64,000 bases of DNA from Naegleria gruberi (taxonomy: Eukaryota): assembly GCA_000004985.1 (NCBI GenBank), contig GG738869.1; one strand, 5' to 3'. The notes beneath the pieces were generated by a model. That model ran no database searches. It worked only from the letters and a program-made list of their open reading frames with translations, and had not been told where the DNA came from. The translations under genes were made by a program, and so were the position numbers. This document shows positions 7,061-45,111 of the stretch, piece by piece (position 1 is the first letter of the stretch; each line of letters starts with the position of its first letter).

Positions 7061-7373
7061 AAATAACAAAATGATGATAATAATTGTGTGTTTTATTCCG
7101 ACTGATTATGATGATGCTCATTACGATGATTAAATGGAACTTGACTGGCGTACAATGATGTTCTTCAAAAATGACGTACGACACGCTATTTTGGATCATG
7201 ATTTGATGTGGAAATTTTTAATGCGGCTATTTGGAATCAAACTATTTGGCTATTATTCTAAACTACGTGAAATAATCAAATAGTTGGGAAGTTTGTTGAC
7301 AATTTACGAAACCAACGATAAAAATCAACACAATTTCTATCGTAATGTAAAATTGAATCAATATGTGACGGAA

Positions 7374-12654: not shown

Positions 12655-12662
12655 AACATTAA

Positions 12663-13307
12663 TCATTTCATATCAATTCTATTACGCTCTTTTAAATAGT
12701 GATTTTCTGACTTAATTTCTCCACATACTGCAAAACAAGTTGCAAGAATAGCTGTTGAAATTGATCCAATTTCTAACATTGCCAACAAAACTTCATTAGG
12801 CAATTGCTCAGTCATCAAAGTATGAGGAAGTGTTTGAACAAATTCCAGTAAGCTTCTGGAATGATGAATTTGGATTTTAGTCTCATCAAAGAGTAATACA
12901 CCAGCGATTGCAATATTAACCACAACATCCAAACCATTTAAAACACTTGCAATGAAAAAAAGCTTACTTGCTTTTTTGGATTTTTCTGATTTGGATCTTT
13001 GATAATCAGCAAGACAACCTTGTAATGCTAAAATACCGCCAATCAAAGGCACTGATAGAATAATTCCTCGAGCAAATCTACTTGGAATTATCATACCCAT
13101 TCTCCACAATATTCTCAATCCAATAATTTCATACATTGATTCTTTCATTCGATGAAGAGGTTGCTTCTTATTATTTTGTTGATCATTTGTAAAATTAATA
13201 TTGGAAACTGAGAATTTTCTTTCTTTCGGAATCGTCCAGATAGTTAGTGCTGGATTTTTCTTTGAGATTAACCTATTAATAGGTATTAGGCATTTGAGTT
13301 TAATCAT
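12663..13307 (-). CDS. Hypothetical multi-pass membrane protein
   Basis: A 214-aa ORF with a verified ATG. There are several hydrophobic helices with G-rich motifs (GIILSVPLIGGILALQG). The 5' end lies only about 47 nt from the stop of the next gene. Confidence 0.45.
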   Translation of the reverse strand: MIKLKCLIPINRLISKKNPALTIWTIPKERKFSVSNINFTNDQQNNKKQPLHRMKESMYEIIGLRILWRMGMIIPSRFARGIILSVPLIGGILALQGCLADYQRSKSEKSKKASKLFFIASVLNGLDVVVNIAIAGVLLFDETKIQIHHSRSLLEFVQTLPHTLMTEQLPNEVLLAMLEIGSISTAILATCFAVCGEIKSENHYLKERNRIDMK

Positions 13308-13354
13308 TTTTTTAATCCAATTAATACACGTTATTACAAATTTACAATTTAAGT

Positions 13355-17004: not shown

Positions 17005-18012
17005 ATGGTGACTACCAATAACAACAAGGAAACATCGGTCGCTTCAACAGAGAAGAAGCCAGTTGCTGTGACTACCAACAAGATTAGACAAAAGTTAAAG
17101 CAAATGAACAAACAAACAAAATCAACGGTTACAAATAGTGATAGTACCAATTCTAAATTCCACAACAAACAAAGAACTTTGATTTTATCTTCACGAGGTA
17201 TTCATGCTAAACATAGACATTTATTGAAGGATCTTCGTACCTTGTTACCTCACACTAAAACCGAAAGTAAATTCTCTAAAGAAGGAATAGATGAAGGAGA
17301 TTTGGTTAAAAAACTTCACAGACTTCAAAAGATTGACCACATTGCTGCTGCTTTGAAATGTCCAAATATTTTGTACTTTGAAGTTGATAAGGAATCAGCA
17401 GATACAGAATTGTTTTTATGGATGTCAAAGACTTCAACTGGACCTTCTATGAGATTTAAAGTTGAAAATATCAGTACTATGAATGAATTGAATCTTATCG
17501 GAAATTGTTTGAAATATTCAAGACCATTATTACATTTCGACAAAACATTTGACAATATTGAAGGCGAAGATAAGCTTACTCATCTCCCATTGATTAAGGA
17601 ATTATTAACACAAACTTTCTCTACACCACTTAATCATCCAAAATCAAAACCATTCTTTGATCACATGTTTGCTTTCTATTATTTGGATGGAAGAGTTTGG
17701 TTCAGAAATTATCAAATTGTTACAAAACAATCAAGCCAAGGAGTTGCATTGACTGGTTCCCAAAAACATGAATATTCTCTTGTTGAAATTGGACCTAGAT
17801 TTGTTCTCAAGTTGACTAAGATTCTCAATGGTTCTTTCGATGGTAGAGTTATTTTCAATAGTGATTCACACTTTGTTTCAAAGGCTGAAGTTCAAAGATT
17901 GGAAAGCATTAAACTTGACCTCGACAAGCAAAAAAAGACTGAAAAACACAGAAAGTACTTAGAATTGAGAAAGCCAGCTGATGCTGATGAAGTGAGTTCT
18001 GTTTTCAATTAA
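17005..18012 (+). CDS. Brix-domain ribosome biogenesis protein (Brx1/Ssf1/Ppan-like)
   Basis: 335-aa ORF with a verified ATG. Brix-domain motifs are present (LILSSRGIHAKHRHLLKDL..., FEVDKE...). There is a possible GTGAGT donor near the 3' end, so the C-terminus is uncertain. Confidence 0.75.
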   Translation: MVTTNNNKETSVASTEKKPVAVTTNKIRQKLKQMNKQTKSTVTNSDSTNSKFHNKQRTLILSSRGIHAKHRHLLKDLRTLLPHTKTESKFSKEGIDEGDLVKKLHRLQKIDHIAAALKCPNILYFEVDKESADTELFLWMSKTSTGPSMRFKVENISTMNELNLIGNCLKYSRPLLHFDKTFDNIEGEDKLTHLPLIKELLTQTFSTPLNHPKSKPFFDHMFAFYYLDGRVWFRNYQIVTKQSSQGVALTGSQKHEYSLVEIGPRFVLKLTKILNGSFDGRVIFNSDSHFVSKAEVQRLESIKLDLDKQKKTEKHRKYLELRKPADADEVSSVFN

Positions 18013-19629
18013 AAGTTTTTTCAAAAAACTGCTGTACTGATTTTTTTCAATATTCCCTAAAGCTCCTCACCTAAAGCAATAATAAGGACTTTGTGAGCGG
18101 ATTTTGAATGATATTGGAGCAAAATTTGTCGTGCCCAACTCAATTTTCCATCACTACAAGATATTAATCACCGCGTTTCATTTTGCTTTTTGTAATAAAA
18201 GTTGTAAAGTTATGACGTTGGATAGCTTTATAGAAAAAAATACCATCACCAACTGACAAACCAAAAATTATTACCTCCCAACAATAATTAGTAACATCAC
18301 ATCCTACCTCGTCTCTTAGGTTGAGTTCTTTTATAAGAAAGTTCTTTTCATGTAGAGGTGTTTTATAATTATTCCAAAATTGAAGTAATTGTTTTACTAC
18401 GAGGTAAACTCACAACAAATTCTCAAGGAGATGATGTTGTGTTTTGGGATGTAATGTTTCTTATTATGTCAGAAAACATCTAGTAAGGAATGATTTATTT
18501 AGAAGAAGAACAACAACAATATTTAGAAGATATAAAACCATCACTGTGGGCTGATGATTTTCAGCAATAATTTAGAGAGACCAAACAAAAAATGATTTAA
18601 TATTGCAACATACAAACACACCACTTCAGCACCAACAGCAAGTAATCGTCTATGGAAAACTTCATCAAAGAGGGTCTCCTTTTTTTCATCACTAAATTCT
18701 ATTGATGAAGCATCATGACTATATCCGAGGATTGTGAAACAACAACCAACAGCAGGCTTTTACGATGATTCCGCACATTTGAATGAAGTATTAGTTTAGA
18801 TCAACTGGTACTGAAAAGGAGAAAAAGTATGCTGCTTGTTTGGCTCCTACCTCATCACTTGCTGTTGCTTTTTGTTATTTACTCCTGAATGCGTTGCTAT
18901 CTTATATATGATTGTGATGTGTTTAATTAATAAGTTGGAGTGGGAGCAGCAACAGGGTAATAAATGTAAGTACCTACGATTTATTTGAAATTTTACCTTA
19001 ATTCCATTTCATAATTGACACCATGGAACATTTAAGGTGAAATCTTCACCAAAATAATAATTTGAAATAGTCAGTTTTGGAAAATGATGTCAGAGAATTT
19101 GATATTTATGAGTGTAATCTTTTCACATTTCAATTTGGTTGGTGCTATACATTCCATCATCAAGACTTAAGGTCCTGCCATTAATTAGAAACTGTGATGC
19201 AAGAAATAGTAACTGTTGTTGATGGAACTGTTTTAGAAGATTTAGCAAGTATTAATGTTGTCTACACAACAGCAACTGTTGCCATCTAAATCCTTACAAC
19301 TCTGAAGGTGAATTCATTTTGAAATATGATCCTCCAAGGGAAACTATGTTCATTCTCACTGATTAAAAGCTGATTTTACCGTTTGATTTGAGTGTAGACA
19401 TTTACAATAGATGATTCTCTTACACATACAGAGGTGAAAGAGATGCACTGATGATGTTCTTTCAACTCTTCAGTTTTGACTCAAGTCAAATTGTCTATTC
19501 AGTGGAAGGTATGGATGAGTTATCTATATAGTAGACACTTATAACTTTAGAATTAGAAAGCTATCAATTACCAATAAGACTATCATATTTATTACTTATC
19601 GGTGGACAAGAAGAAGGAAAACTTTGGAA

Positions 19630-20084
19630 ATGAATATTACTGATACTCTTGCTCAACCAACAGGACTTGCTTTTTTCAGAATTCTGAACATGCTTCAATT
19701 AACACCATTCCATATACATTGCCTACAAGTTTTACATCAAGATTGTCAATGATCTTACAATAATTGCAAGATCTAGTGCTCCACCAACTCCAGGTCTGAG
19801 TTAGCAGCTCCTGTTCCTACTCTCAATACAACTATTGCCCCAACAAGTATTGCAGTTGGTGAGGATGGAAAAGTAACACACCCTCAAAATGTTAACACCT
19901 GCTCCAACCTGAACAATTTTTGTCGTGGCTAATACTGGATAATATCGGTCCTATTGAGGATGATGGCTTGGCTATTAGTTCTTCATTTATTACTGTTTCC
20001 TCTGAGGAGATTATTCTTGCTGATTGTATGAACAATAGAATTAGAAAGATTTGTGGAGAGGGAGTCATTACTACCAGTGGCTAA
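19630..20084 (+). pseudogene. Decayed NHL-repeat gene fragment, paralogous to the receptor kinase at 30615
   Basis: Translation of 19941..20084 gives NIGPIEDDGLAISSSFITVSSEEIILADCMNNRIRKICGEGVITTSG*. This matches the NHL unit of the 31097-exon (IYFADSGNNRIRKIVNGTINTVAG). Upstream frames are broken by stops and no intact ORF remains. Confidence 0.35.
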
Positions 20085-21329
20085 TGCCTATGACTAAGAG
20101 AGATGTTTGAAAGTAATTGACCTAACCTTTCATTTTGCGTATTGTATGGAATGAAATGTCTCTAGTCAAAGAAGTGTTTTTGAGAATTGTGAATAGTGCT
20201 TCAGTGATCGTTTGGGCTCTTGTTGATGGTAAGGAAATGAGTAGAGATATCAAAAAGATTGCATATGATTTTGCCTTCTTTACTATTGATGTTTCACAAG
20301 TTTGCCAAGGAATTGTAGTCATTCAAGTTATGTTAATATTCGTAAAAAAATTGAGAAAATGACTCTTTGCCACCTTGCTGATTTTCGAAGTGGTTTCTCA
20401 GCACCAAACTTTCACATCATCATCTAAACATCAATTTAGTAGTAATATAGTAATTTTTATTGGAGTATTTTCTTCATTATTTTGGAATTTATCTTCATGA
20501 TGAAAAATCACAAGTTGATGAATCATCAGAACATTATTGTTGTTTTCCATCAATATAATAATTTTATTTGTGGAAATTAATATATAGTAATGAAATTACA
20601 CTAAAATCTTCATCACCGTTGGATTTAATGGAAAAGTTGGAAAACTATTAATGTGGCATTGTTGGAAATGGACAATAGTATGATATAAAACTTTGTTTGA
20701 TCACTTTTCATCAAGTATTGATAGAGATAGGTACATGTGAATTTTGAAAACTAACATGAACATTACTCCATGTGTACTTCAACCAACTTGAATACAATCT
20801 TATAGAACTACTAGTACTATTTAAATCACGAATAAACACCATATTCATCATCAAATATTCGTCATCTTGTCGATTACGGAATTTCATTCCACCAGTGTTG
20901 ATTCGGGCCCAACAACAAAATATTAACAATAAAACAATTACCAATACTATTGTTTACATGTTTTATGTTAAATGATCGTAACGATCATCAAGATCATCCT
21001 GTTTTTATTGCATTTCTCATGATAATCAGAAATGTCACAGAGAGTGCCACATATCCATTCTACTCTCAATAAATAATAGTTCCTTTTTACACATGTGCAA
21101 CTTTGCTTATAAACATGATGAATTCATATATTAAAGACTCCAAAGGCTAGTATAATCCTCAATGTGATGTCTAATAATACCATTACAACTTAAAGATAAT
21201 TATCTTATAATTTCATTGAATATGAATTGAATTTGTAAATTGACATAAAACAGTGGTTTATTGTAATTTGGTTTAAAAATAGCTTTCTAAAGCACCTTGT
21301 TGTATCTTGTTGTGACATTTACTAAAAAA

Positions 21330-22385
21330 ATGGCAAAAGCACCAGCACAAATTGTTATGGAGAACAAATTGCGGAAATCATTAACATTAAAACAATTCAT
21401 AGAATTATCCAAGTCTACAAGAAAAAGGAGATTAGATAATCTTCGTAAGAAATTCTTTAATTCAAATTTATTTAAATATTCTTGGAGTAAATGGCGAGAT
21501 GCTATTATCGGAACAAACAATTCAATCCAATATTTATTAAAACAAAGAAAAAACATAAAAAATAATTTATCAACATCTACAATTGATACAATAATTCAAC
21601 AATTAAAAGAGGAAAGGAACAAATCTACAAAAAAAGAATCCAAAAAAGATTTTGAAAAAAAAATTAATAATTTATTACAATCTAAAAATTTATTCAAAAT
21701 CAATGTTAATTTGATATTATGTAGTAATTTGGCTAATACTATTCAACTAATGTTTTTAAGAAATATACTTCCCGAAAATACCACTACTGAGGTAACCAAT
21801 ATATTGGATAAAATTAACCAAAGAAGATCAAAGGAAAATTATTATATAGGAAGTTGGGGAAAGAGTTCTTCTTTTCTATTTAAAACTAATGACACTATTT
21901 TTAATGAATTATCTTCTCAATTTATTAAAATTATTAATTTATTAAAAAATTATGTTTTGGAAATATTGAAATTTGGAAATAACAAGATGAGGAAATTCTT
22001 AGAAAAATACAATAGTAGTGATTTTTTATCAATTTATCCGACAGTGTGTTTTAATTTTTTGGATAAATCTGTAGATGAAAATAGAATTCTACATATTCAT
22101 CCGGATAAGGAAGACACTGGAACTAGTCTAATTTTTTACTTTGGAAAGTTTAAAGGTGGAGCAATCTCATTTCCTGAATTAAATTTTAAGCTTATGGTTC
22201 AATCAGCAGATGTTTTATTGTTTGATGGTAAGAATAATTTACATGCTGTTGAATCACTTCATGGTAAAGATGATGTTAGATATTCCGTTGTATTCTTTGC
22301 TCATAAAGCAGACTTGGGTAAAACTAGTTATCCCATGAATAGAGGAGAAGTTATGAAAGGTATTAAGAATAAAATCAATAATTAA
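21330..22385 (+). CDS. Tet/JBP-family 2OG-Fe(II) dioxygenase, Naegleria NgTet1-like 5-methylcytosine dioxygenase
   Basis: The ORF-track start at 21297 is TTG; the first ATG follows an A-run at 21330. The C-terminal half carries the catalytic signature HIHPDKED (HxD) ... LIFYFGKF ... VLLFDGKNNLHAVE (distal His) ... VRYSVVFFAHK (Arg). As I recall it, this aligns well with NgTet1 (HKD...SLFYFGNF...VLFFKGNEYKHVV...WRIGLVYFAHK). The gene is K/N/I-rich and Leu is mostly TTA. Confidence 0.7.
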   Translation: MAKAPAQIVMENKLRKSLTLKQFIELSKSTRKRRLDNLRKKFFNSNLFKYSWSKWRDAIIGTNNSIQYLLKQRKNIKNNLSTSTIDTIIQQLKEERNKSTKKESKKDFEKKINNLLQSKNLFKINVNLILCSNLANTIQLMFLRNILPENTTTEVTNILDKINQRRSKENYYIGSWGKSSSFLFKTNDTIFNELSSQFIKIINLLKNYVLEILKFGNNKMRKFLEKYNSSDFLSIYPTVCFNFLDKSVDENRILHIHPDKEDTGTSLIFYFGKFKGGAISFPELNFKLMVQSADVLLFDGKNNLHAVESLHGKDDVRYSVVFFAHKADLGKTSYPMNRGEVMKGIKNKINN

Positions 22386-28045: not shown

Positions 28046-30412
28046 ATGGGAGGAGAAACTGAACCATCTAACGAAGCTCTAATATCACCAATTACACCTT
28101 TTTCAACCATTATTCCAAATACCTATTCTCAACAACAAGCTAATTTTGATTCAAGTACAATATCCGAAGAGAGGAATGATGGTGATAGTATCAATAGAGT
28201 TACCTCTCTTCCACCATTACCATCATTAGACTCTCCCAAGAAAAAACCTCTTCCATCCATTAACACTCTTTCTCCACCAAGAAAGACTTCAAAACCACTC
28301 CCACCAAGACCAACACAAACCTCTACGGAAATTAATAATTTAGTATTTTCTCATCCCTCTGCTATGAATACAACTTATTCTTCCGATAATTTTACCACCA
28401 ACAATCCATCCTATCCATCCACACCTCCAAAAGTTTTGTTCCGAGATTATACTGAGAATAATTTAGAGCCAGCTTCCAGTATTAATACATATAATTACGA
28501 GTTTGCAAATATAAACCCTGAACCAATATCACATATATTTACAAATGTAGATGGTAGTATGCACCGTAGTTCCTCCTTTGCGGGTACTTTGGTCAACAGA
28601 CGTTCAATTCCTTCGAATGTTGGTTTAAACTCTATACAGGAGGAAGCTATGATTCGTACTCAAAGTTATGACAAATTTAAATTGGACGAATTAAAGAAAC
28701 AAGGATCGACTGCTGCTGGCAATAATAACGGAAATAATAATAATAAGAGACATAAGAAAATATTTTATAATACTGAATTTTTGGAGAAATGCGGATTTAG
28801 TAATAATTCTATTGAACAGCAACAAATCAAACAACTGAAACAGGATGAACTTCAAGAGGAACAGATTCGTAGAATGCATTCTGAACAAGAACAAAAAATG
28901 AAGCAAATGGAATTAGAAGAGTTGGCTCTCGTCAACCGAACTTTACAACAAGAGTTCAGTTTTTCAGAATTTTTAACTTCTCAACCAAAATACTCATGGA
29001 GTGACTTTTTTGCCCATAACAAGAATGCATTTAGTTTAATCAGAGCTATGGCATCTCAATGGTCATGGGGAGAAATGACCTTGGGACTCGAATATTTTGC
29101 AAGAAGTAAGGGCAAGATGAAACGTGATTTTACTCAATTCAAATTAGAGTCAGATTTAGAGAGACTGCCAGCTTCAAACGTTGAGGTTTGGAGACATTAT
29201 GCACGTTTAACCTATCAAGTTTTTAGAGACTCGATAGAGGACATACCAAGGAACACCCGTTTGGAACTTCACAAAATTATTGCCTACGATAGAACTCAAC
29301 AAGCCATGAGACCTGGATATTTTCTGTGTGTGGACGACTATACAAAATCGGTTCTGGTTATTTTTAGAGGAACAAAATCATTTAGTGATATTCTGACTGA
29401 TTTGCACTGCTCCTCTATTCGTTACAAACATGGATATTGTCACAAAGGAATTTTGACAGCTGCTCAATATTTTGATTCGAACAAATTCATCAAGGAAGTG
29501 GTTAAAAGAACTCTTGAGCATCATCCAGGATACAAATTAAGGTTGCTGGGTCATAGCTTGGGTGGTGGTACTGCAGCTATATTGTCCACTATGTGGAAGA
29601 AAGACTTTCCTGATATTCACTGTTATGCATTTGCATGTCCACCAGTTTTATCACAAATTTTAGCTGACGAATGTGCTGACTATGTTACAAGTTTTGTAAA
29701 TGGTGATGATTTTGTAACAAGATTATCAATGACAGCTGTTCACGAATTGAGAAAGGAAGTACAGAACTATCCTTGGAAGGAGGAAATGATGAAAGATATT
29801 CAAAACTCAACACTTGGAAAGTTTGCAGCTGGAGTTAAAAATTATGCATCTGGTTTATTTAGTGGATTATTTGGAGGTAGTAAGAAGGCAGATGTAGTAG
29901 AGCCAATCATAGAAGTTAAAAAGGATGTAATCAAGACAGAACCTATCACCACAAACATTACAACAATAAGTACAGGAGAAGATGCCAAAAGAATTGAGTA
30001 CGATCAATCTAATTCATCGATGGAGGATCAAGATATTTCCAGTTCAAGTAATGCTGATGATGTGCAGAGTACAGATGAGCCTCTTTCCTCAATCTCACAA
30101 AGCACTAATGATGATGTTTTCCCTTCTTCAGGCTCAACTGTTAAAAGAAAAGTTTCCAAAAAACCAAAGAGGAACCCAGATTCTCCACTGATTATTAATG
30201 ATTATGAAAATCTTGTTGTGACTCTCTTCCCAGCTGGTTGTGTCTATCAAATTAGAAATATTGATGACACTGTGTACATAAAAAAGGCCAATAAGGAAGA
30301 CATTACTTCCATAATTTTGAGTGACAGCTACAAGGAAGATCACAGAATGATCAACTATTTATGTAATCTTGATGCTTACAATCCAATAACAACCGAGAGT
30401 AGTGTAATATAA
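28046..30412 (+). CDS. Class-3 (fungal-type) lipase domain protein, DAG-lipase-like, with a Ser/Pro-rich N-terminus
   Basis: 788-aa ORF with a verified ATG. It has the lipase_3 nucleophile elbow GHSLGGGTAAILS and the upstream YFLCVDDYTKSVLVIFRGT motif. The N-terminal 300 aa are low-complexity. Confidence 0.7.
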   Translation: MGGETEPSNEALISPITPFSTIIPNTYSQQQANFDSSTISEERNDGDSINRVTSLPPLPSLDSPKKKPLPSINTLSPPRKTSKPLPPRPTQTSTEINNLVFSHPSAMNTTYSSDNFTTNNPSYPSTPPKVLFRDYTENNLEPASSINTYNYEFANINPEPISHIFTNVDGSMHRSSSFAGTLVNRRSIPSNVGLNSIQEEAMIRTQSYDKFKLDELKKQGSTAAGNNNGNNNNKRHKKIFYNTEFLEKCGFSNNSIEQQQIKQLKQDELQEEQIRRMHSEQEQKMKQMELEELALVNRTLQQEFSFSEFLTSQPKYSWSDFFAHNKNAFSLIRAMASQWSWGEMTLGLEYFARSKGKMKRDFTQFKLESDLERLPASNVEVWRHYARLTYQVFRDSIEDIPRNTRLELHKIIAYDRTQQAMRPGYFLCVDDYTKSVLVIFRGTKSFSDILTDLHCSSIRYKHGYCHKGILTAAQYFDSNKFIKEVVKRTLEHHPGYKLRLLGHSLGGGTAAILSTMWKKDFPDIHCYAFACPPVLSQILADECADYVTSFVNGDDFVTRLSMTAVHELRKEVQNYPWKEEMMKDIQNSTLGKFAAGVKNYASGLFSGLFGGSKKADVVEPIIEVKKDVIKTEPITTNITTISTGEDAKRIEYDQSNSSMEDQDISSSSNADDVQSTDEPLSSISQSTNDDVFPSSGSTVKRKVSKKPKRNPDSPLIINDYENLVVTLFPAGCVYQIRNIDDTVYIKKANKEDITSIILSDSYKEDHRMINYLCNLDAYNPITTESSVI

Positions 30413-30614: not shown

Positions 30615-33600
30615 ATGTCACAACATCAAACAACACTACAACTACTCATTTCCCTGTTTTTATTTTTGATTGTTGTTCAATGCACAGCATCAACAATGGA
30701 ATACAATACTAGTCTATCATTTGGTATTGATACACTGGTTGGCTATGATCCGAATAATGGAAATAATCTTCCTTCAATATATGCCAATTTGAATCCCAAT
30801 AATTTGACATTTGGCACGAATACAAAGATAATGTTCATGTATGATGGTGTTAGGAATGCCATCATGAAACTTGATCTGAAAACAAATCTGATTTCGAAAT
30901 TAATTGATTTAGAATATAGAGCGCTCTCAATATTAGAAACTAGAAATGGAATTTTATTTACAGATGCTCAAGGAAGGAATATTAAAATGTTGGCCAATGA
31001 TTCAATTTCTATTGTGGCAGGAACATTAACAACAGGATATTCAGGTTTGTTGATCTTGGGATGATTTTATTTTAAACTAATATTTGATATTAAAAGGGGA
31101 TGGAATTGCAAACGAAACGAAACTAAACTCTCCAAAGGGATTAATTGAGGATGGTAATGGAAATATTTATTTCATCGATTACTATAATTATAGATTGAGG
31201 AAATTATCAGGTAATATGATTTCAACAATAGCTGGTGATGGAAAGAATGAAAATAATGGAGATGGAGGATCAGCTCTAAAGGCCAACTTGAAAAATCCTT
31301 CCAATCTGGCACTAATTGACCACAACTTATACATTTTATGTGATACAGCAATAAGGAGAATTGATTTAATCACAAGTAAGATTTACAGTTTCTCAGTTGA
31401 AAGTCCATTCAAATTTACTGGAATTTTCCAAGCCAATGGAACAATTTTTGTTCACTCTGCTACTGCAATTGGTAAAATTCAATCCAATCAGAAGATTTCT
31501 ATCATTTCCGGATCAGCATCTGTATCGGGTCCTTCTGTAAATAATATTCCAGCAATTGATGCCTTATTCAAACAAATAAGTTCAATTGGGGTACTTTCGT
31601 CTGAGTTAGGGGATGTTATTTATGTTTATGATTCTTCAAATAATGATATTAGGGTTATTAATGAGACTCGTTTTATTAATCTGTTGGCTGGTGTTAAATC
31701 TTTGAAAGCAAATGTGGATTTATCGGCTCCTTATTTTATTTCTAATGATCCAATTGGACTTGCTGAGCTGATTAATGGTGATTTAGCCTTTTCGCATTCA
31801 GGTGGAATTGCCAAATATTCCAATGGATTGATAACAAACATAGTCGAATCTTCTAGCCCAATATTAGGAATTGCTTTCTATGAGAAAGAGGATGAGCTCT
31901 ATTATGTGGATTCGAACTCAAAAATTAAAAAGCTCAAAGATGGAGAAACGATACACGTAGCAGGAGCATCGAATGGACAAAATGCAGACAACATTCCAGC
32001 ATCAAAAGCATTACTTTCCTCTCCGTATGGAATTTCAATAGATCAAAGCAATGGAGACATTTATTTCACTGAACAATCAGGAAATAGAATACGAAAGATT
32101 TCTCAAGGAATTTTAACAACAGTTTGTGGAAATGGTCAAGCAGGAGATTCTGGAGATAAAGGGGAGTCCATTAAGGCACTAGTGAATAATCCAAGTGGAA
32201 TTCAGTTTACACAAAATGGAGAGATTTATTTCGCTGATTCAGGTAATAATCGTATTCGAAAGATTGTGAACGGTACCATTAACACAGTTGCTGGGGCAAA
32301 TGTTTGTAATGCTAAGGAAGGATCAAAAATGGCCACTGAAACGGTGTTGAGAAATCCAACTTTCGTTTATGTCTATCCGAATGGTGATTTTCTCATAACA
32401 GAAACAAACTCTCATTTGGTGAGAAGAGTTTCAAAAGGATTTATTTACACTATTGCAGGTACTGGACTATCTGGAGAGGGACCTGATTCAGTTCTGGCTC
32501 TTCAATCAGCTTTAACAAGTCCCAAGTCAATCATTCATTCATTTTCAATGAAACGAGTTGTACTAGTTGATAAGACCAATAGAGTGAGAATCTTAACTCC
32601 TTATTGTGAAGAGGGATATGTATTAGATGTTTATGGAGCATTCTGCATTCCTTTCTGTTTTGGAATTCTTGCAAATGATACAAATACTTGCTCTGGAAAG
32701 GGAGAATGTTCTTCATTCAACAGATGTAATTGTGCAGCATCCTATGGAGGAGAACAGTGTAATATTTCTAAATGTTTTGGAGTATTGGCAACTGACTCAA
32801 AGACATGCAGTGGAAGAGGAAAATGTTTGGATGGAATTTGTGATTGTGGAGGTAAATTCATTGGAACTAATTGTGAAATTCCCATTTGCTATGGAAAAGC
32901 TTCAAACGAGAGTGAAGTTTGTGGCGCTCATGGAAAATGTTCTAATTGGAATACGTGCGAATGTTTGGATAAGTATTCAGGCAGTTCGTGTCAATATCCT
33001 ATTTGTTTCGGCATTGCTTCAACCAGCCCTACTGTTTGCAGTGGAAGAGGAGTATGTACAGGACCAGATTCTTGTAATTGTCAATCTGGATCTTCTGGTA
33101 CTATTTGTGAAGTATCGAGAGAAGAAATTGACAAACAGAATCGAGAGAGAATAATCATAATAATTAGCTCAGTTTCAGGCTCCTTATTCTTATTATTCTG
33201 CTGTATTATTTGGACAATATCGGTATTCATATTCACCAATAGAAAGCTCAACCAACGACACAATGCAGAGCTAGATATGGAAAAGAAACTTCTTGAATTT
33301 GAGTTCAATGATTCACAATCTTCAGTCAGGGAATCAGTCTACCTCTTTTCACAACACCAGAAACCATACTTGATACCAATAGAAGATATTACATTTGTTA
33401 AAAAGATTGGAATTGGAGGATTTTCAAATGTTTATTTGGGAAAGTGGAACCAGTCGTTTGTGGCTGTCAAATCTGTTGAAAATCAAGACGATAGAGCTGA
33501 TGATGTATTTGAAAAAGAAGCACAAACTTTGTGTGCCCTCAAACATCCAAATATTATCACTTTTTATGGAATTTCATTTTCAGAGAGCAGAAAATTGCTG

Positions 33601-34371
33601 ATTGTGGAATATTTTGAAAAGGGAAGTTTAGATAAGTACATTGAAGCACTCACTACAAGGAAGATTAATTGCTCTCTAGAGAAAAAGATCAATTACTTGT
33701 TGCATATTGCTAATGGAATGGCCTATCTTCACTCGTACAAACCTAATCCTATTGTTCACAGAGATTTGAAACCAGCCAATGTTTTAATGTCAGAGAATGG
33801 AATTCTCAAGATATGTGATTTTGGATTGAGTAGAAGTTTGAATTACGAAACCAAGTCAGCCATGACATCCAATATTGGAAGTTTCTATTATTTGTCTCCA
33901 GGTAAGTTGTTTTTGGGTAGTTTATAATAATTTGATCTAAATCTGAAAGAAATGTTAAATGGAAGCAATCAAAAGAAATATGCAACTGCTTTGGATGTGT
34001 TCAGTTTTTCAATCATTGCTTGGGAATTACTTTTTGAAGAGGGAAATCCATACGATTATTCCAACAGAACAAAAGTATTTTATACAATGAATGAGGAAAA
34101 ACAGCTTCGATATGAAAAACTCAGTCCATTTAATGTTCCAACTCTTGTTTCTCAAGGCCTGAGACCACCAATTCCATTCGATTCGTCCGAAAGTTGTAAA
34201 GATTGGTGTAGCTTATTCGCAACCTCTGAAAAAGAACATTATCTCATTATTTTACAATTAACTGATTTGATTAAGCGTTGTTGGGATGAAAGACCCGAAC
34301 AGAGACCTTCATTTATAGAGATTGTGAACATATTATCTCAATTCGAAACTTATTTCTCACATGATTTGTAA
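30615..34371 (+). CDS. Receptor-type protein kinase: signal peptide, NHL beta-propeller repeats, tenascin-type EGF repeats, TM helix, TKL-like kinase; 3 exons: 30615..31044, 31097..33901, 33950..34371
   Basis: Three ORFs are joined by two introns: 31045..31096 (GTTTGT...AAAAG, 52 nt, phase 1, restoring GYSG|DGIANETKLNSP) and 33902..33949 (GTAAGT...GAAAG, 48 nt, phase 1, restoring the kinase YYLSP|E|MLNG, i.e. the APE motif). The protein also has a signal peptide, EGF-like C-x-C repeats, a hydrophobic TM segment and the kinase HRDLKPANV...DFG motifs. Confidence 0.75.
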
Positions 34372-34670: not shown

Positions 34671-36719
34671 TTAATCAGATAAATCTTCAAAGCATCTGCC
34701 TTCCTTTCTCATCAAATCAATGTGTGAATCAGCAACTCTGTCATCAACACCCTCAATATTCTTAATGATATCCTTGATGACATTGTAAGCTCTTGTTCCA
34801 AAACCTGAAACACCTCCACACAAATATAAATTTCCTTTTGATCTACTGAGCATTTGATAAACCTTTTCCTTGTTTTCATAAATGGCATCAGCAATCATCT
34901 TTCTGTCAGTTCCAGAGTAAGCAAAATGAGATTCAGAAATGAGACCATCCTTAACAGCTTGTTCAATTTCCTTCTTGTAAATAACTTCTTCAGGTCCTCT
35001 AACACCATAGAACAAAATTGAAGGACCGAATTTGATGTTTGGATTTCTCATTTGTTGAACTCTTCTTTCATCAATAAATCCTCTGAATGGAGCAATACCT
35101 GTACCACCAGCAATACAAACGATTGGTGTTTCAGGATTTTCTGGAAGTCTGAATGAAGAAGTTCTGATAACAACAGGACATGCAATAGATGGTTTGCACT
35201 CTGACAAGTAGTTGGAACACAATCCAAAGAATGTCTTGGTATTATCAATTGGCTGTACAAGTGGACCGTAGGTAATTCTCAAAATTTTTCCTTCTCCTCT
35301 CTTCTTTCTTTCTTCATTTTCTAATCTAGATGAAGAAATTGAATAGTATCTTGGTTGATTCTTTGGTAAGATACCAATGAGATCTTGCCATGTCACCTTA
35401 ATGGATGGGAATTTCTCTAACATATCTACAATATTTAACATTTTGTTCTTGACTTCAGTCAAGTATTTTTCACTCTTCCAAGATTCCAATGTAGCTTTTT
35501 CTTCGGCATTGGTTGCCTTGTCTGCCAAGAAACCTAATAAAGAAGGAGAAACGACACCATTCAAATCAAAGAATTGAGACATGGCCTGATATAAAGTAAT
35601 TGGGCTATCTCTAGTGGCAATAAATGGTGGCAATTCAATACTACATGTTGGTGTTTCAAGAGTAAAGATAATTTCCTCCATAGGCAAATCCAATTTCAAG
35701 AAACTTTCCAATCTTTTAACAAGAGATGATGGATTGGTTGGGAAAATGCAAATATGGTCACCAGTCTCATAATCTATTGGAGTTCCTTCAATATCAAACT
35801 CAATCTCAAGACGTAATCTATTGGATTCTGGACATAAATTCTTTACGGATTGAATCTTCAATGGGAATGGGTTCTTTGGTGAAACTGGTGAGCTGGCATC
35901 ATAGGAACGAACAAATTGTCTTAACTTGTCTCTATATTTGGCTTTATCTAGAAGACGAAAAAAATGCTTGCCATTTGTTGTCACACCTTCTCCCATTTGA
36001 CTTGTTTCACTTTGAGATGGTACTTGGCATGAAGATGCAGTAGATGAATTGGATGTTTCATTTTCCTTTTGTTTCAAGAATTCAATAAATTCATTCTTCC
36101 AATTTTCAAAATCAGTTTCAATACCTTCTTCACCACCATCGTCTCCTTCACCTCTCTTGAATTGTAAATCACTTCCCAAATCCTTTAAACGTTGTTCCAT
36201 TCTTTTACCAACAGCTTGATATCTTTCAGGGAAGTTGGCAGAATTTCCCAAACCAAAAATTGCATAATTTGGTGCATTGTTTTTGAAATCCAAACTCTTA
36301 GTATTGTCACTCATAAAAAATTCATAAAATGGTTTAGCATTGTCAGTTGGTTGACCTTCACCGTAGTTTGACATGATAAATAATACAATATTATACAAAT
36401 CATTTTTTTGTAAGCCAAATGACAAGGCCCTTTCTGGTTCAATATCACTCAAATCAACAACTTTAACACTTGACAAGAATGATGGATTTTTCTCCATCAA
36501 TTCGCTCTTCAAACCTTCAGCAAACATTTGTGCAGTTCCCGTTTGTGACCCATAACAAATTAACAAGTTTGTCTTGGACATGTCGACAAGACTTGCATGG
36601 AACTGTCTCATACATGCTGCTTTAAAAACACTTGTATTGGTATTCATTCTATGTTGACCAGAGCATGCATTGCGAAGTAATACACTGCAAGCATTCATTT
36701 TCAGTTTATTCATCATCAT
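34671..36719 (-). CDS. Diflavin (FMN + FAD/NADPH) oxidoreductase of the cytochrome-P450-reductase/CysJ type, with a predicted N-terminal mitochondrial presequence
   Basis: The ORF-track start at 36725 is GTG right after a TAA; the first ATG is at 36719. The protein has a flavodoxin domain (LICYGSQTGTAQMFAEGL), an FAD-binding RYYSISSS motif and an NADPH-binding C-terminus (VCIAGGTGIAPFRGF ... LYLCGGVSG). The first ~48 residues are basic and S/T/N-rich with no acidic residues. Confidence 0.8.
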   Translation of the reverse strand: MMMNKLKMNACSVLLRNACSGQHRMNTNTSVFKAACMRQFHASLVDMSKTNLLICYGSQTGTAQMFAEGLKSELMEKNPSFLSSVKVVDLSDIEPERALSFGLQKNDLYNIVLFIMSNYGEGQPTDNAKPFYEFFMSDNTKSLDFKNNAPNYAIFGLGNSANFPERYQAVGKRMEQRLKDLGSDLQFKRGEGDDGGEEGIETDFENWKNEFIEFLKQKENETSNSSTASSCQVPSQSETSQMGEGVTTNGKHFFRLLDKAKYRDKLRQFVRSYDASSPVSPKNPFPLKIQSVKNLCPESNRLRLEIEFDIEGTPIDYETGDHICIFPTNPSSLVKRLESFLKLDLPMEEIIFTLETPTCSIELPPFIATRDSPITLYQAMSQFFDLNGVVSPSLLGFLADKATNAEEKATLESWKSEKYLTEVKNKMLNIVDMLEKFPSIKVTWQDLIGILPKNQPRYYSISSSRLENEERKKRGEGKILRITYGPLVQPIDNTKTFFGLCSNYLSECKPSIACPVVIRTSSFRLPENPETPIVCIAGGTGIAPFRGFIDERRVQQMRNPNIKFGPSILFYGVRGPEEVIYKKEIEQAVKDGLISESHFAYSGTDRKMIADAIYENKEKVYQMLSRSKGNLYLCGGVSGFGTRAYNVIKDIIKNIEGVDDRVADSHIDLMRKEGRCFEDLSD

Positions 36720-37359
36720 CTTCACTTAGTGGATGTAGTAACAGATGTGTGTGTGGATGTATTTTTTTTGAATCTTTAATTGTTCCTTCATCAATTATTG
36801 ATTCTTTTCATATAATATTATCATCGGGATGATGATTCATTCCTTTTGAGCAATTATGAGAATATTCAAATGCATGTATGTGTTTTATCTGAACGCACTA
36901 ATGGATTCTGAACTCTATTAATTTCTTTAATTGGCACTCGTAAAATCTTTAAATCTGTAGAGGGAGATGAAGAAAAAACAAGTCCCGTTACCCCTCATCT
37001 TCAATTTATTACCATCTCTTGTGTGAGTCATAGGCTGTCATCCGTTCAAGCAATTCTAATGAACAATGTTGTAGAAACAAGCAAAAATGAAGACCATTAA
37101 AGGAAACTAGTAATTTTTGGCGGGAGGTGTATGAAAGCTCTATTGGTACGCACAAATGGGTTTACCACCAATTCTGAACAAAAAAACATTGAAAAATAAT
37201 AAAACTCACAAATGGTGAATCTATTTCAATTAGACAATAAAGTAGCTGTCGTTAGCTGGATGTGTCGTAAGAGAATCTTTTGTTGGCTTTAAATATTCAC
37301 ATTTCTTCTTGTCACTTTGATCAACTAATAACAAAAAAACAACAACACACAACAACAAG
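36720..37359. promoter_or_regulatory. Shared, divergent 5' intergenic region between the diflavin reductase (-) and HCP (+)
   Basis: The two start codons face away from each other, 640 bp apart. The region has no credible ORF and is AT-rich with A-runs before both ATGs. Confidence 0.3.
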
Positions 37360-39712: not shown

Positions 39713-42700
39713 ATGGCGAAACGATCGTTCACTGATTTGCTAATTGTTACCTTGACTTCCGATGATCATTTCGAAGATATCACCATACCAGAGCACGATT
39801 GTGATTTATTGGCATTAAAACATTTTCAAAAAGTTGCAGCAGAACGTATCGAAAGAAATGAACAAATTTATTCTCATGTTTCCCATCTAAAATCAAGAAA
39901 TCACTCAAATAATTATGAAAAAATTACTAAAAATCCATTTCCGGACAATGATTGTAAATTAGCTTTTTTCAAGGTTTTAAAGTATGATGGCTTGTTGTTG
40001 CAGTTTGCATCGAATGAATTGAGAAATGATCGTGATGTTGTTTTGAGAGCTGTTAAAGAAAATGCAGGTTCTATCGAGGTGGTGAGTGAGGAATTGAGAA
40101 GTGATAGGGAATTTGTGGAGAAGGTTGTTATGATTGCTAAAGATAGAACGAGTTTGTCCACAAAAAGTTTTTTCAAATTTCTTGACAAGTTTCATGATGA
40201 TGAGTTGATTGTTAGAAAGGTGGTGGAGAAACATGTAAATTCTCTCGAGTTTGTATCACCAAGATTGAGAAATGATAGGTAGGTTGTTTAAATATCATTA
40301 CCAAAAGCAAATTCATACACAGAGAGATTGTTTGGAATGCTGTTAAAAGAAATGGATCATCTCTTCAATTCGTTCCAGAACATTTGAAAGATAGAGAATT
40401 GGTTATGCTTGCTGTGAAAACTGATTCCCAGGCACTTCTATTTGCACCAATAGAGTTTTTGAAAGATAAAGAAATTATTTCAAGAGCTGCTAAATTATCA
40501 GGACTTGCTATTAAATATGCCCACACAGAACTTAAAAACGACAGAGAGTTTGCTTTAGAGATGGTAAAGTTGAGAGCACTTGGTTATAATTATCTTTCGG
40601 AAGATCTAAGAGGAGATCGGTAAGTTGTTTGTGAAACTGTTGCAACAGTAATGAACGGAAAATTAGGGAAATTGCATTGGCAGCTATGAAGTCAATGCCA
40701 ACTTGTCTAAGAATGGCACCTAATCACATCAAAGATGATTTTGAAATTGTTTCCATTGCGGTTACGAAAAATTTATCAGCTCTTGTGTTTTCCTCACAGA
40801 GATTCAAAGATGATACAGACTTTATCTATAACTGTGCTTCAACTGCAAGTCAAATTATTTATTTTCTGAATAATCATGAATCTCTATTAGTAACTAATCG
40901 AGATTTCTGTTTACGGCTCATAGAAAAGAGTTGTGGATATGATTGTTTTAGAAATGCTCGAGATTTTGTGAAATTGGATAAGGAACTATGTCTGAAATTC
41001 ATACAAATACATCCAGATTGTTTGGAAGATGTTAAATGTGAAGATATTCTAAATGACAAACAACTCTTAATGGATTTATTGCCACACAGTGAAAAAATTC
41101 TTCTTCAAATTCCAAATGAGCTTTGTAATGATAGAGAACTCATGATGTGGGCATCGAAAATTCATGACAATGCTCTAAAATTTGCCTCTGAAGAGCTTTG
41201 TGCTGATAGAGAGTTTGTAAATGAGGCATTGCTTTGTGATTTTGGTAATTTTGAGTATTTATCAGAGGAGTTGAGAAGTGATAGAGAGTTAGTGGAAAAT
41301 ATTGTAAAAATTGATGGTTTCAATGTTCAATTTGTACCAGAATTATTTAGAAACAATAGAGAACTAATCATTACTTCAATCAGAAATGCATTCTCAGATA
41401 TTTCTCCATACTTAGGATATCAGTTGAAGGAAGATAGAGATATTATTTTGGAATCTGTGAAAAGATCTGGCATTATAGAAAATCTTCTACACGAGTTTAG
41501 AGATGATAGAGAAATTGTAATGATGGGAATTCAACAATTTGGACCAGAATTTCGATATGCTTCCAAGTTTTTACGTAGCGATAGAGAATTGGCATTAATT
41601 GCCATTAGAAACTTGTGCACTTTAGAGCATATTCCCAAGGAAATATTAGATAGAAAACTTGCCTATGAAGCTTGTAAACGTTCGGCCTTTAATTTAAAAT
41701 TTGCCTCTGAGTATAGAGAGGATGAACTAATTGTTCTTTCTGCATTAAGCAATGAAAATGGGGGTTTATATACCAAATATGTCGGTGAGCGGTTGAAGAA
41801 TGACAGAGATTTTATATTGAAAGCTTCCAAACTTCAACCTAGTATTATTGCTCATATTTCGACTGAGCTTCTCCAAGATAGAGAAATAATCATAAATGCA
41901 CTTTCGCATGATGGAAATGTACTTGCTCATCTACCAGAGGAATTCAAGAGTTGTAGAGAATATGTGGAAATAGCTGCTAACTCAAACCCACATTCACTTA
42001 AATACGCATCAGAAGATTTGAAGCAGGATCCAGAGTTGTTATATAAGGCAATTGCAACAGGGATTGCCAACTCTTTAGTTTCTGAACAATTTTTGGAGGA
42101 TGCTGATGAGTCAACTATACAAAAATGTATTGAAAATGGAGTTTCACTTCGTAGTTTTCCTAAGTCTTTAACCAGTAATAGAAACTTAGTTATTAAGGCT
42201 GTAAATATTAATATGGAGAATCTTAGATATGCATCCAAGGATCTAATTAACAAGGAACTGATTATGGAAATTTCACCAAAAAATTTTGATATATTACTAC
42301 TTCCAATCAAATGGAGAAGTGACAAAGATATTGCTTTAAAGGCTTTGGAAATGAATGGAAAATCAATAATATATATTTCTGATGAGTTGAAAAATGAATT
42401 TAAGCACAACAAGGAAATCCTATTGAAAGCAATGAAAACAGATAGCATTCCATTCCTTTATGCGAGCGATGATTTACAAAACGATCGTGATTTTATTTTG
42501 GAATCTGTTTCAACAAATGGCTTGGTATTGAGATATGTTGCATCCCATTACAAAGAAGATAGGGAAGTAGTTTTAAAGGCAGTTAAAAATCATGGAAATT
42601 CAATTCGTTACGGAGCCAGACATTTCATGAATGATAGAGAAATCATGTGGAATGCAGTTCAAAACTTGGGAGCCAAAATTCTTCCGTGCAATCCATTAAT

Positions 42701-43134: not shown

Positions 43135-45111
43135 TTACTCTCTACTCTGTATCATGTTATTTACAATACGTTTGTAATTTGCTCTTGATAGAGAGACCAA
43201 ATCATCCAAACCAAATGAATAACTTGAATTATTATCGAGACAATATTCCATCATGCTAATGAGTTCCAAAATCTGTTCTCTAAACATTGGTATACTCACA
43301 ACAGTATCCTTCTTTGTTGTTGCATGTAAGGAGAATCTGGAAACGAGTGTAGAACGACATATTATAGTAATAGGAATTGTGGTTGACTTGATGAGTTTGT
43401 TTAGCTCTTTTAACACTCTCTTACAATCCATTGATGTTGGAAATAAGAACATGGCCCAATATAACTGAAAGTGTATACTCTCCTTTAACAATCTAGATTT
43501 GGATGTCAGATCTTGAATTGCTTGTTTTGTAACTTGGTGATAATCTAATGTATTGTCTTTCAGTACATTCATCCATCCAATTAACAACTTAGTGGCAAAC
43601 AGAATTGGAGAATTCCCAAAATTGAGCATTAAGAAATTCAAATCATTTCGAGCCAAATGAAATTCTGCTTGTTGGGCTAGAAAGATTGATCTGTTTAGAT
43701 AGGCATTGAATCTATCTCTAGCATGAGTTGCATTTGTACATGCCATATCAAAATATTGTCTAGCCCTTACATAATTTCCATTCAGTTCCATAACAAAAGC
43801 AACATTGACCATTGCACTAATGTACCTAGAATCTATTCGAATGGCATTTAGAGAATTATCCTTAGACTGTTTCCTCAGATTTAGAATTTCAGTTGCTTGC
43901 TCCAAATTAGACCTTGCCTCAAGTTGACGAGAAAGAGCCAACTGTACAAGTGCCTTATTATTGAGAGCTCGTGTATCATTGGGATTTAAACTATCTAATA
44001 CATACTGAAATTTAGAAGCAGCCTCATGAAAGTTTTCTGAAAACAGTAAATAATAGCCATGAAATTTGTATGAAAAGCTGCGAACATCATCCCAAATTCC
44101 TTTGACGATTGATTGACACATACGAACCAAGGAGAATTCAACTTGGTTATATCGAATTTGACCAACCTTTGTAACTTGAGAAAATTTGTTTTCACTCTTT
44201 GCTAATTGTCCAACAAAGTCAACAAGGTCTGGATTCGGATTGTTGGTGGGGTTTGTTTCAGCTCGATCTTGGAACATGTAGAGCCGAATAATAATTTCTT
44301 CCATAGTTTCGTATTGAGGAATTCTAGTTTCTTGACTTTGAAAACAACTCCATAACAATGGTACAAGATTACTCTCCTCCAATCTGTGTCTAGCTTCTTC
44401 AGAATCATTTTCGTATAGAATTGCCGCAATTTCATCATTCTCCAAGGTTGAAAATGTTTGATTTAGATTTCCTGTAATTAATTGAAATAAAATTGACCCC
44501 AAGGCAAAGACATCATAGGTTTCACTACTTCCTTCACTTGGATAGTTGTTTCCACAACTGTTTGAAAACTCATCATCATCATCAAGAACATCTCCAACAT
44601 GTTGCATCTTTTCAAAATCTGCAAGGACTATTCTAATCACATCGTTTTCATAGCTTTCAACAAGAATATTCTTCAATGTTATATCTCTGTGCACAATGTT
44701 GTTATGATTCCTCAATTCGACAAGAGCACTCGCTAGTTGATAACCTATTTGATATATGATTGGAAATGGAAGTAATCTCATTTGTTTAGTTGTCTCATCA
44801 AACAACATTGAATACAGATCACACTTATAGAATGGCATTTCAATTACCAGTGCATTGTTTTCAAAGTAAGATCGGTAAATTTTCACAATGTTTGGATGGT
44901 CCACCTTTTCTATCATTTCTGCAATTTCCTTTTGTTTTTGTAAATGTTCATCAAGTTTCTCACATTTCATATTATTTTCTTCCCTCTCAATTCTATAAAC
45001 CTTATTTGTGGATATTTCACGAATGACGTGGATTAGAATAGGGGAACGACGACTAGTGTGCAGTAATTGATAGTTGACTTTGTCTTTTTTCCATTTTTCA
45101 GTAATAGACAT
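43135..45111 (-). CDS. Protein-kinase-like domain (probably a degenerate pseudokinase) fused to C-terminal TPR-like repeats
   Basis: 658-aa ORF with a verified ATG. The catalytic loop HRDITLKNILV is present, but there is no GxGxxG loop and DFG is DFE. The C-terminal half has TPR-like helical repeats. Confidence 0.5.
   Translation of the reverse strand: MSITEKWKKDKVNYQLLHTSRRSPILIHVIREISTNKVYRIEREENNMKCEKLDEHLQKQKEIAEMIEKVDHPNIVKIYRSYFENNALVIEMPFYKCDLYSMLFDETTKQMRLLPFPIIYQIGYQLASALVELRNHNNIVHRDITLKNILVESYENDVIRIVLADFEKMQHVGDVLDDDDEFSNSCGNNYPSEGSSETYDVFALGSILFQLITGNLNQTFSTLENDEIAAILYENDSEEARHRLEESNLVPLLWSCFQSQETRIPQYETMEEIIIRLYMFQDRAETNPTNNPNPDLVDFVGQLAKSENKFSQVTKVGQIRYNQVEFSLVRMCQSIVKGIWDDVRSFSYKFHGYYLLFSENFHEAASKFQYVLDSLNPNDTRALNNKALVQLALSRQLEARSNLEQATEILNLRKQSKDNSLNAIRIDSRYISAMVNVAFVMELNGNYVRARQYFDMACTNATHARDRFNAYLNRSIFLAQQAEFHLARNDLNFLMLNFGNSPILFATKLLIGWMNVLKDNTLDYHQVTKQAIQDLTSKSRLLKESIHFQLYWAMFLFPTSMDCKRVLKELNKLIKSTTIPITIICRSTLVSRFSLHATTKKDTVVSIPMFREQILELISMMEYCLDNNSSYSFGLDDLVSLSRANYKRIVNNMIQSRE

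Follow-up and report, generated by a model that had tools for sequence, protein, structure and literature searches.

Within a 64,000-nucleotide (nt) stretch of contig GG738869.1 of Naegleria gruberi (assembly GCA_000004985.1; the whole stretch is referred to below as the window), positions 30615-34371 of the + strand hold, in all probability, one gene of three exons for a 1218-amino acid (aa) type I single-pass receptor-like kinase of the TKL group with an NHL/EGF ectodomain. The membrane topology, signalling mechanism, ligand binding, substrates and expression of this protein are inferred. An initial annotation of the window had joined three open reading frames (ORFs) through introns of 52 and 48 nt into a product of this length, an assembly borne out by a single scan solution per junction and by gapless alignments to homologues. 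The domain order that it had proposed, from signal peptide through NHL repeats, EGF modules and transmembrane helix to TKL kinase, was upheld by profile searches, homologue alignment and structure prediction. The features of the gene are as follows.

30615-34371, + strand: whole gene, three exons; spliced coding sequence of 3657 nt, giving 1218 aa
30615-31044, + strand: exon 1, with the start codon, the signal peptide, NHL blades 1-2 and the beginning of blade 3
30615-30692, + strand: predicted signal peptide, aa 1-26 (hydrophobic segment aa 5-29)
30777-32607, + strand: NHL repeat array of 12 blades, aa 55-647, with intron 1 inside the span
31045-31096, + strand: intron 1, 52 nt, GTTTGT...AAAAG, GT-AG, phase 1, inside a Gly codon (..TGYS/G/DGIANE..)
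31097-33901, + strand: exon 2, with the remaining NHL array, Cys linker, EGF1-4, transmembrane helix, juxtamembrane segment and kinase N-lobe to activation loop
32602-33108, + strand: Cys linker (YCEEGYVLDVYGAFCIPF) followed by four EGF-like modules (Pfam, Cys pattern)
33151-33234, + strand: predicted single transmembrane helix, aa 829-856, followed by the basic segment NRKLNQRH and the conserved juxtamembrane motif ELDMEKKLLEFE
33388-34344, + strand: kinase domain, aa 908-1210 (Pfam, catalytic motifs), with intron 2 inside the span
33382-33900, + strand: extent of the reference model XP_002676957.1, from the kinase N-lobe to the activation loop, ending one base before the intron-2 donor
33902-33949, + strand: intron 2, 48 nt, GTAAGT...GAAAG, GT-AG, phase 1, with an in-frame TAA
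33950-34371, + strand: exon 3, with the kinase C-lobe and its family-specific insert of ~35-40 aa; stop codon at 34369-34371

The three underlying + strand ORFs span 30615-31064, 31084-33927 and 33952-34371. Left unspliced, the reading frame of every exon is closed by a stop only a few codons further on, and this holds for intron 2 as well, the length of which is a multiple of three yet which carries a TAA in frame. Introns were sought by a scan for GT-AG pairs of 35-120 nt with a restricted list of donor hexamers and restoration of the reading frame, which returned exactly one solution for each junction. The first spliced junction reads as a typical NHL inter-blade segment, VAGTLTTGYS/G/DGIANETKLNSPKGL, and its product aligns without gaps to the N. 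lovaniensis protein P0249 (XP_044551476.1) and to the metagenomic sequences P0130 and P0128; the second, GSFYYLSP/E/MLNGSN, aligns equally gaplessly to P0123, P0127 and P0249. Intron 2 falls inside the Glu codon of the SPE (APE) motif, and the spliced sequence, YYLSP/E/ML, thus confirmed the position within the kinase that had been assigned to it beforehand. Similar candidate introns of 43-47 nt were returned by the same scan elsewhere in the window, one of them a 45-nt case in another kinase gene, so that introns of such size and sequence look normal for this genome.

The APE site also carries an intron in three homologous loci, namely L001 (5945-5986, 41 nt) and L002 (3891-3932, 41 nt), both from metagenome ERZ27315067, and L004 of N. 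lovaniensis (~9410-9475, 66 nt). In these loci the intron is in phase 0, between the codon preceding the APE glutamate and the GAA codon, whereas the N. gruberi intron is in phase 1, with the G of the GAA codon upstream, and hence one nucleotide off the site of the homologues. This displacement could reflect intron sliding, for studies of which the displaced yet conserved intron offers a small, tidy case. At L003 the site lacks an intron and the region forms a single uninterrupted ORF; P0123 and P0127 are contiguous over the site, and P0124 and P0401 break off there. L001 and L002 lack intron 1, their NHL-to-kinase ORFs being continuous.

In Pfam profile searches, the ectodomain scored 68.9 bits with TEN_NHL (PF25021, cutoff 27.1) and 43.1 bits with NHL (PF01436, cutoff 20), and the SGL and Vgb_lyase scores lay far under their cutoffs. 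By eye and by alignment, aa 55-647 resolve into 12 mutually alignable blade units of 40-59 aa each; a blade hidden Markov model (HMM) re-detects all 12, a circular result since it was built from them. An AlphaFold2 model of the ectodomain, computed from a 46-sequence alignment, contains 11 consecutive four-stranded blades with a predicted local distance difference test score (pLDDT) of 70-98 per 10 residues, two loop dips excepted, and its fold is that predicted for a six-bladed NHL propeller with four-stranded blades. The best structural matches of the NHL part are non-enzymatic NHL domains, those of SOQ1, NHLRC2, teneurin, TRIM71 and the PknD sensor.

The Cys linker (YCEEGYVLDVYGAFCIPF) that follows the array is conserved in P0249, P0130 and P0128. 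Behind it, four EGF modules, each 34-35 aa long and with six Cys, occupy aa 664-698, 703-736, 741-775 and 780-814, and are recognized by the Pfam families EGF_2 (37.1 bits, cutoff 22.1) and EGF_Teneurin (28.5 bits, cutoff 24.3), with EGF_TEN at 52.9 bits remaining under its cutoff of 65. The modules are assigned by sequence profile and six-Cys pattern, pLDDT being below 40 over the EGF region. They had been described as tenascin-like, of which the EGF part holds by profile and the tenascin label amounts to generic six-Cys EGF resemblance only.

The NHL array is ~30% identical over ~520 aa to NHL arrays of proteins from Acidobacteria, Verrucomicrobia and Bacteroidetes, a likeness as close as that to the Naegleria paralogue P0249, and one which could reflect either a bacterial origin or merely consensus-like repeats. 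A search with the full-length protein was dominated by bacterial multi-repeat NHL proteins, their E-values inflated by repeat summation, and gave no family information; a profile of one blade plus EGF, transmembrane helix and kinase N-lobe was likewise dominated by bacteria, and still recovered P0401, P0421 and P0246.

Strong hydropathy is confined to aa 5-29 and 827-859, the latter, with a Kyte-Doolittle peak of 2.61, being the only strong internal hydrophobic segment; a weaker one lies at 650-670 in the Cys linker/EGF1. Basic residues are located C-terminal of the transmembrane segment and 10 N-glycosylation sequons N-terminal of it, and together these features therefore predict type I topology, that is, a type I single-pass receptor kinase. 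The juxtamembrane motif ELDMEKKLLEFE is conserved across the Naegleria receptor-kinase family described below.

Residues 908-1205 match the Pfam families Pkinase and PK_Tyr_Ser-Thr with E-values of 1e-51 to 1e-53 (Pkinase 1.7e-51), and with this the profile search sustained both the EGF and the kinase assignments. The N-lobe contains the G-loop at 915-922 (GIGGFS at 915-920), K935 and E951, followed by HRDLKPAN at 1031-1038, DFG at 1051-1053, SPE at 1077-1079 and CWxxxPxxRPSF at 1189-1200. This full set of intact catalytic motifs points to a catalytically competent enzyme. Tyrosine kinases are marked by a catalytic loop of the form HRDLAARN or HRDLRAAN and a P+1 loop PxxWxAPE. Here, the catalytic loop HRDLKPAN and the P+1 region GSFYYLSPE are of Ser/Thr type, not of tyrosine-kinase type, which rules out an animal-type receptor tyrosine kinase.

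The nearest solved kinases are TAK1 (E 7e-38), ZAK/MLT, CTR1, MLK1/4, TNNI3K and DLK, with tyrosine kinases interleaved among these TKL structures at similar E-values in the PDB sequence search; named database matches are MAP3K7, EDR1/CTR1, VIK and pyk3-like. These nearest structures support the assignment as TKL-type, and by its best matches and by an HRDLKxxN catalytic loop paired with a tyrosine-kinase-like C-lobe motif (CWxxxPxxRPxF) the kinase is probably a member of the TKL group (MLK/TAK1/Raf-like). A plant RLK/Pelle (IRAK) kinase was considered and rejected on best-match evidence, none of the 60 best solved structures being an IRAK or a plant receptor-like kinase (RLK); MAP3K7 and Raf-like kinases match better than plant RLKs (WAK2-like, LRR-RLK), whose E-values are 1e-23 to 1e-27. 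An extra segment of ~35-40 aa between kinase subdomains IX and XI is common to the family.

A single reference model was recovered at the locus, XP_002676957.1 / EFC44213.1 (P0246), a 173-aa "predicted protein, partial" which an exhaustive representative search found to be 100% identical to residues 906-1078. The downstream neighbour is a P450 reductase gene (34671-36725). The upstream neighbour, ORF 28046-30412, is residue-for-residue identical to N. gruberi XP_002676956.1 (NAEGRDRAFT_58119, diacylglycerol lipase, on a 747-kb scaffold), which marks the window as nuclear DNA of this species, in keeping with its GC content. The accession EFC44213.1 comes directly after EFC44212.1 of this lipase, from which we infer that the NHL/EGF part lying between them has no separate model. 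About 85% of the receptor gene thus appears to be unannotated in the reference, and the three-exon assembly is a roughly seven-fold extension of the sole model found. The corrected gene model is the main practical value of the finding: the 173-aa partial model should give way to the 1218-aa one, and other family members may be equally truncated.

The NHL/EGF receptor kinase belongs to an uncharacterised Naegleria-wide family. A representative search in which every protein was scored gave ~30 single-stretch matches, most of them 1000-1500 aa long with the kinase at the C-terminus. All of the 20 that were looked up are complete or partial proteins from N. gruberi, N. lovaniensis or N. fowleri, bar an unnamed ENA sequence and the partial model of the gene itself, and they are annotated as hypothetical or merely as "protein kinase domain-containing". 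The gene product shares the family hallmarks, namely a transmembrane segment, an E-L-(D/E)-x-K-L-L juxtamembrane motif and a C-terminal kinase with the C-lobe insert, and its best matches are Naegleria proteins. Literature searches on Naegleria, which did not extend to the N. gruberi genome paper, found no description of this receptor-kinase family. A word-index search missed the 100%-identical P0246, and its no-match outcomes were not taken to indicate absence.

The ectodomains of the 30 matches are diverse, comprising Chlamydia polymorphic-membrane-protein (PMP) repeats in 15, Beta_helix in three, EGF modules only in one (P0273) and NHL plus EGF in one (P0249 of N. lovaniensis). The PMP-repeat members are P0278, P0343, P0290 and 12 more, and this bacterial-type adhesin repeat is unexpected on a eukaryotic receptor kinase. 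Other NHL-EGF-transmembrane-kinase sequences come from metagenome assemblies (P0126, P0128, P0130, P0401, and the partial P0124 and P0123). An unbootstrapped neighbour-joining tree built from the kinase core groups P0273, with its EGF-only ectodomain, and the NHL/EGF members in a single clade nested among the PMP-type sequences, which make up the majority.

The 1239-aa P0249 (C9374_001816) aligns with the receptor over nearly its full length, the kinase regions being ~50% and the ectodomains 26-29% identical, and has the same succession of NHL array, Cys linker, EGF, transmembrane helix, juxtamembrane segment (ELD/ELExKLL) and TKL kinase with insert. It differs in having one EGF module instead of four and an APE intron in phase 0 instead of phase 1. 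N. gruberi XP_002673827.1 (NAEGRDRAFT_80827) shares the transmembrane segment, the juxtamembrane segment (ELD/ELExKLL), the TKL kinase module and the C-lobe insert. A further N. gruberi "predicted protein" of 589 aa, P0421, consists of a signal peptide, an NHL array, four EGF modules and a transmembrane segment, collinear with the ectodomain described here at 32% identity. Its model ends in "...KLRMKFKKQELN", resembling the family juxtamembrane motif, and it may be another receptor kinase whose model was truncated ahead of a downstream exon.

Several points weigh against the three-exon receptor as set out above. The gene model is supported by homology and splice-site logic, not by RNA, and the exact 1218-aa product is absent from a 15-billion-protein collection. 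The AlphaFold2 model is of low confidence for blade 1 and for the EGF stalk (pLDDT <50), and these parts of it were left unused; the arrangement as two six-bladed propellers is a prediction drawn from the blade count and from superpositions of single propellers, and the predicted signal peptide and transmembrane helix are hydropathy calls. The ectodomain is ~26-29% identical to that of its closest full-length relative, P0249, the gene neighbours of which differ from those in the window, so that no orthologue is claimed; the kinase tree, finally, carries no support values.

That the three ORFs are separate, unspliced genes or fragments is scarcely credible, despite the fact that the sole reference model is partial and ends at the intron-2 donor. 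ORF 2 has no ATG near its 5' end and opens in the middle of an NHL blade, and ORF 3 would open in the middle of the C-lobe; splicing restores unbroken NHL and kinase alignments to the homologues, the APE-site intron recurs in three other loci, and the corresponding region of L003 is one continuous ORF. If the gene were silent or had lately been inactivated, as a pseudogene in waiting, the sparse annotation would be explained, and the dead NHL gene 11 kb upstream demonstrates that the family does lose members. This explanation is nevertheless quite improbable, as the spliced frame is open over 3.66 kb with all catalytic residues, the 24 EGF cysteines and both splice-site pairs intact, in contrast to the true remnant at 19.5-20.1 kb, which is full of stops and frameshifts. 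It is also unlikely, if somewhat less so, that the NHL part is an enzyme of the lactonase/lyase type or an adhesin instead of a ligand sensor, with a kinase that merely regulates it. The best structural matches mentioned above are non-enzymatic, Pfam SGL and Vgb_lyase are far under their cutoffs, and the same kinase module carries unrelated ectodomains throughout the family, which is the pattern of sensor swapping.

For the three-exon receptor, the following mode of action may be proposed. The tandem six-bladed NHL propellers would form the presumed extracellular ligand-binding platform, carried by the Cys linker and the four EGF modules as a stalk. Binding of an extracellular ligand to a propeller face would alter the oligomeric state or the orientation of the receptor, which would in turn lead to trans-autophosphorylation of the Ser/Thr-rich activation loop and to downstream signalling. 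Across the family, one transmembrane-juxtamembrane-kinase module is kept and its ectodomains are swapped, with NHL/EGF in one clade and PMP repeats or a beta-helix in most others.

The initial annotation had called NHL/EGF receptor kinases unusual outside animals and plants, which is imprecise, since the functional precedent is bacterial and the real relatives form a Naegleria-specific family; to our knowledge, neither animals nor plants have a recognised class of receptor kinases with an NHL ectodomain. The closest functional precedent is PknD of Mycobacterium tuberculosis (PDB 1RWI), which couples an NHL propeller sensor to a Ser/Thr kinase. In PknD, the kinase is N-terminal and cytoplasmic and the propeller C-terminal. 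The gene described here thus has the reverse polarity, and PknD differs further in having one propeller, no EGF stalk and a bacterial Hanks-type kinase in place of a TKL kinase. The likeness implies no common origin of the whole architecture.

Teneurins resemble the gene product in that their ectodomain, too, unites an NHL propeller with EGF modules, and teneurin-type entries supply its best Pfam families (TEN_NHL, EGF_Teneurin), top Foldseek matches and top PDB sequence matches (9ifo, E 5e-45). They are kinase-free type II proteins in which the EGF modules precede the NHL domain and which also possess a toxin-like C-terminus and a YD-repeat shell. The protein described here, by contrast, runs from an N-terminal signal peptide through NHL, EGF and transmembrane segment to a C-terminal kinase and is predicted to be type I. 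Teneurin membership was accordingly rejected, given the different order and topology and the absence of any YD/RHS or teneurin intracellular domain from the Pfam report. A precedent for the ectodomain is found in LRP5/6, where tandem propellers are likewise combined with EGF modules; however, LRP5/6 and LDLR-type proteins have YWTD (LDL-receptor class B) repeats instead of NHL repeats, EGF modules interleaved after each propeller, not gathered in a single stalk, and no kinase.

Conceptually, the closest precedents are WAK and ACR4 in plants and the transmembrane kinases of Entamoeba. The plant proteins, too, are single-pass receptor Ser/Thr kinases. WAK ectodomains contain EGF modules, and WAK2-like proteins, at 24-25% identity, cover 69-78% of the EGF-to-kinase query. 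CRINKLY4/ACR4 has a propeller-like repeat domain with a Cys-rich domain behind it. Plant RLKs are members of the RLK/Pelle (IRAK) family, whereas the kinase described here is nearest to the MLK/TAK1/CTR1 type; plant RLKs are, moreover, not known to carry an NHL array, which indicates that the architectures arose independently. Lineage-specific TKL-like expansions are also known from amoeboid protists, in the form of the Entamoeba transmembrane kinases, many of which are single-pass receptors with Cys-rich ectodomains, and of the Dictyostelium TKL kinases. Both genera are Amoebozoa, in contrast to Naegleria, which belongs to Discoba, and we know of no NHL propeller ectodomain among their kinases.

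Receptor kinases are usually discussed as animal (receptor tyrosine kinases, TGF-beta receptors) and plant (RLK/Pelle) inventions with scattered protist cases. Against this background, it is conceivable, if on balance doubtful, that Naegleria independently built a modular receptor-kinase system with swappable, bacterial-looking ectodomains, shaped by tandem duplication and decay, in which the NHL receptors would respond to cues from outside the cell, for instance bacterial prey or cell-surface glycans. The NHL array itself may be of bacterial origin, its similarity to acidobacterial and verrucomicrobial NHL proteins matching that to the Naegleria paralogue. The family would moreover be under-counted, as short introns seem to have led to truncated reference models repeatedly, in the present gene and probably in P0421. 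The locus documents a distinct heterolobosean architecture of double NHL propeller, EGF stalk, transmembrane helix and TKL kinase, and the ectodomain-swapping Naegleria family to which it belongs offers a clear and testable case of convergence in the evolution of receptor kinases within Discoba. As the family is present in the pathogen N. fowleri, its kinase-bearing surface receptors could be of interest as targets. Current understanding is not overturned by the finding, and its interest is modest: a familiar kind of protein in a lineage-specific form.

About 11 kb upstream of the receptor gene lies what, as far as its sequence can tell, is an old, decayed fragment of an NHL-repeat gene:

19519-20081, + strand: decayed NHL remnant, ~four blade-like units spread across all three + frames, with stops and frameshifts

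Its blade-like pieces follow one another serially across the + frames as VIYIVDTYNFRIRKL.. (from 19519), LIGGQEEGK / ..TDTLAQPTGLAFF, HSIYIAYKFYIKIVNDLTIIA, TIAPTSIAVGEDGKV and SSEEIILADCMNNRIRKICGEGVITTSG (to 20081), with "MNNRIRKI" at 20028-20051. The units are spaced ~47-63 codons apart and contain the blade elements IY(I/V)xD, RIRK and TI(A)G. With the blade HMM, 19896-20081 (17.4 bits) and 19519-19749 (12.5 bits) are the two best matches in the window outside the gene, and both exceed the highest score over 20 shuffles of the window (10.8). A hand-stitched translation, its stitching chosen by eye, reached 24.7 bits with Pfam NHL (cutoff 20). The remnant lies within 18013-21296, a 3.3-kb ORF-poor stretch between ORFs 17005-18012 and 21297-22385 which has no ORF of at least 150 aa, the longest within 18500-21296 being 77 aa, and which includes the lowest GC content of the window (27.5% at 20-22 kb).

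There is some chance, though a rather small one, that these pieces are no gene fragment and only match the short NNRIRKI motif by accident. The pieces taken singly are under the Pfam NHL cutoff (12.4 and 12.5 bits), tblastn E-values at the site are merely 0.009-0.27, DNA similarity to the gene is nil, and the 24.7 bits come from a translation stitched by eye. Chance would hardly place the two best blade-HMM matches at most 560 nt apart on the same strand, both above the maximum of the 20 shuffles, nor arrange four units with regular spacing and recognizable blade elements inside an ORF-poor, low-GC stretch.

A decayed gene fragment being the preferred explanation, the earlier claim of a decayed upstream paralogue stands in its first half, a genuine broken NHL array with MNNRIRKI. 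Neither EGF, transmembrane or kinase remains nor nucleotide similarity to the gene were found in 18.0-21.3 kb; paralogy to the receptor is thus not shown, and the remnant was rejected as a decayed copy of it. A dead NHL fragment fits local duplication and loss of NHL genes as seen near homologues elsewhere, and the clustering of NHL genes near NHL-kinase genes is compatible with the same process. In L001, a second NHL gene (6550-7410) lies ~140 nt downstream of the last ORF of the kinase gene. In N. lovaniensis L004, an NHL+EGF gene (11619-13571) is located 1.7 kb downstream of the NHL-kinase gene.

Elsewhere in the window, which has a GC content of 31-36%, a second, unrelated kinase gene is present at 832-2196 on the - strand, composed of two ORFs and a 45-nt GTAGGT..TTAG intron (1632-1588) that splits HRDLK/PDN. 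A third kinase-like ORF of 658 aa (43135-45111, - strand) matches the kinase domain of the receptor weakly in tblastn, at 22-28% identity. Candidate short GT-AG introns joining adjacent ORFs on the same strand are located at 7633-7675, 40620-40666 and 55608-55562.

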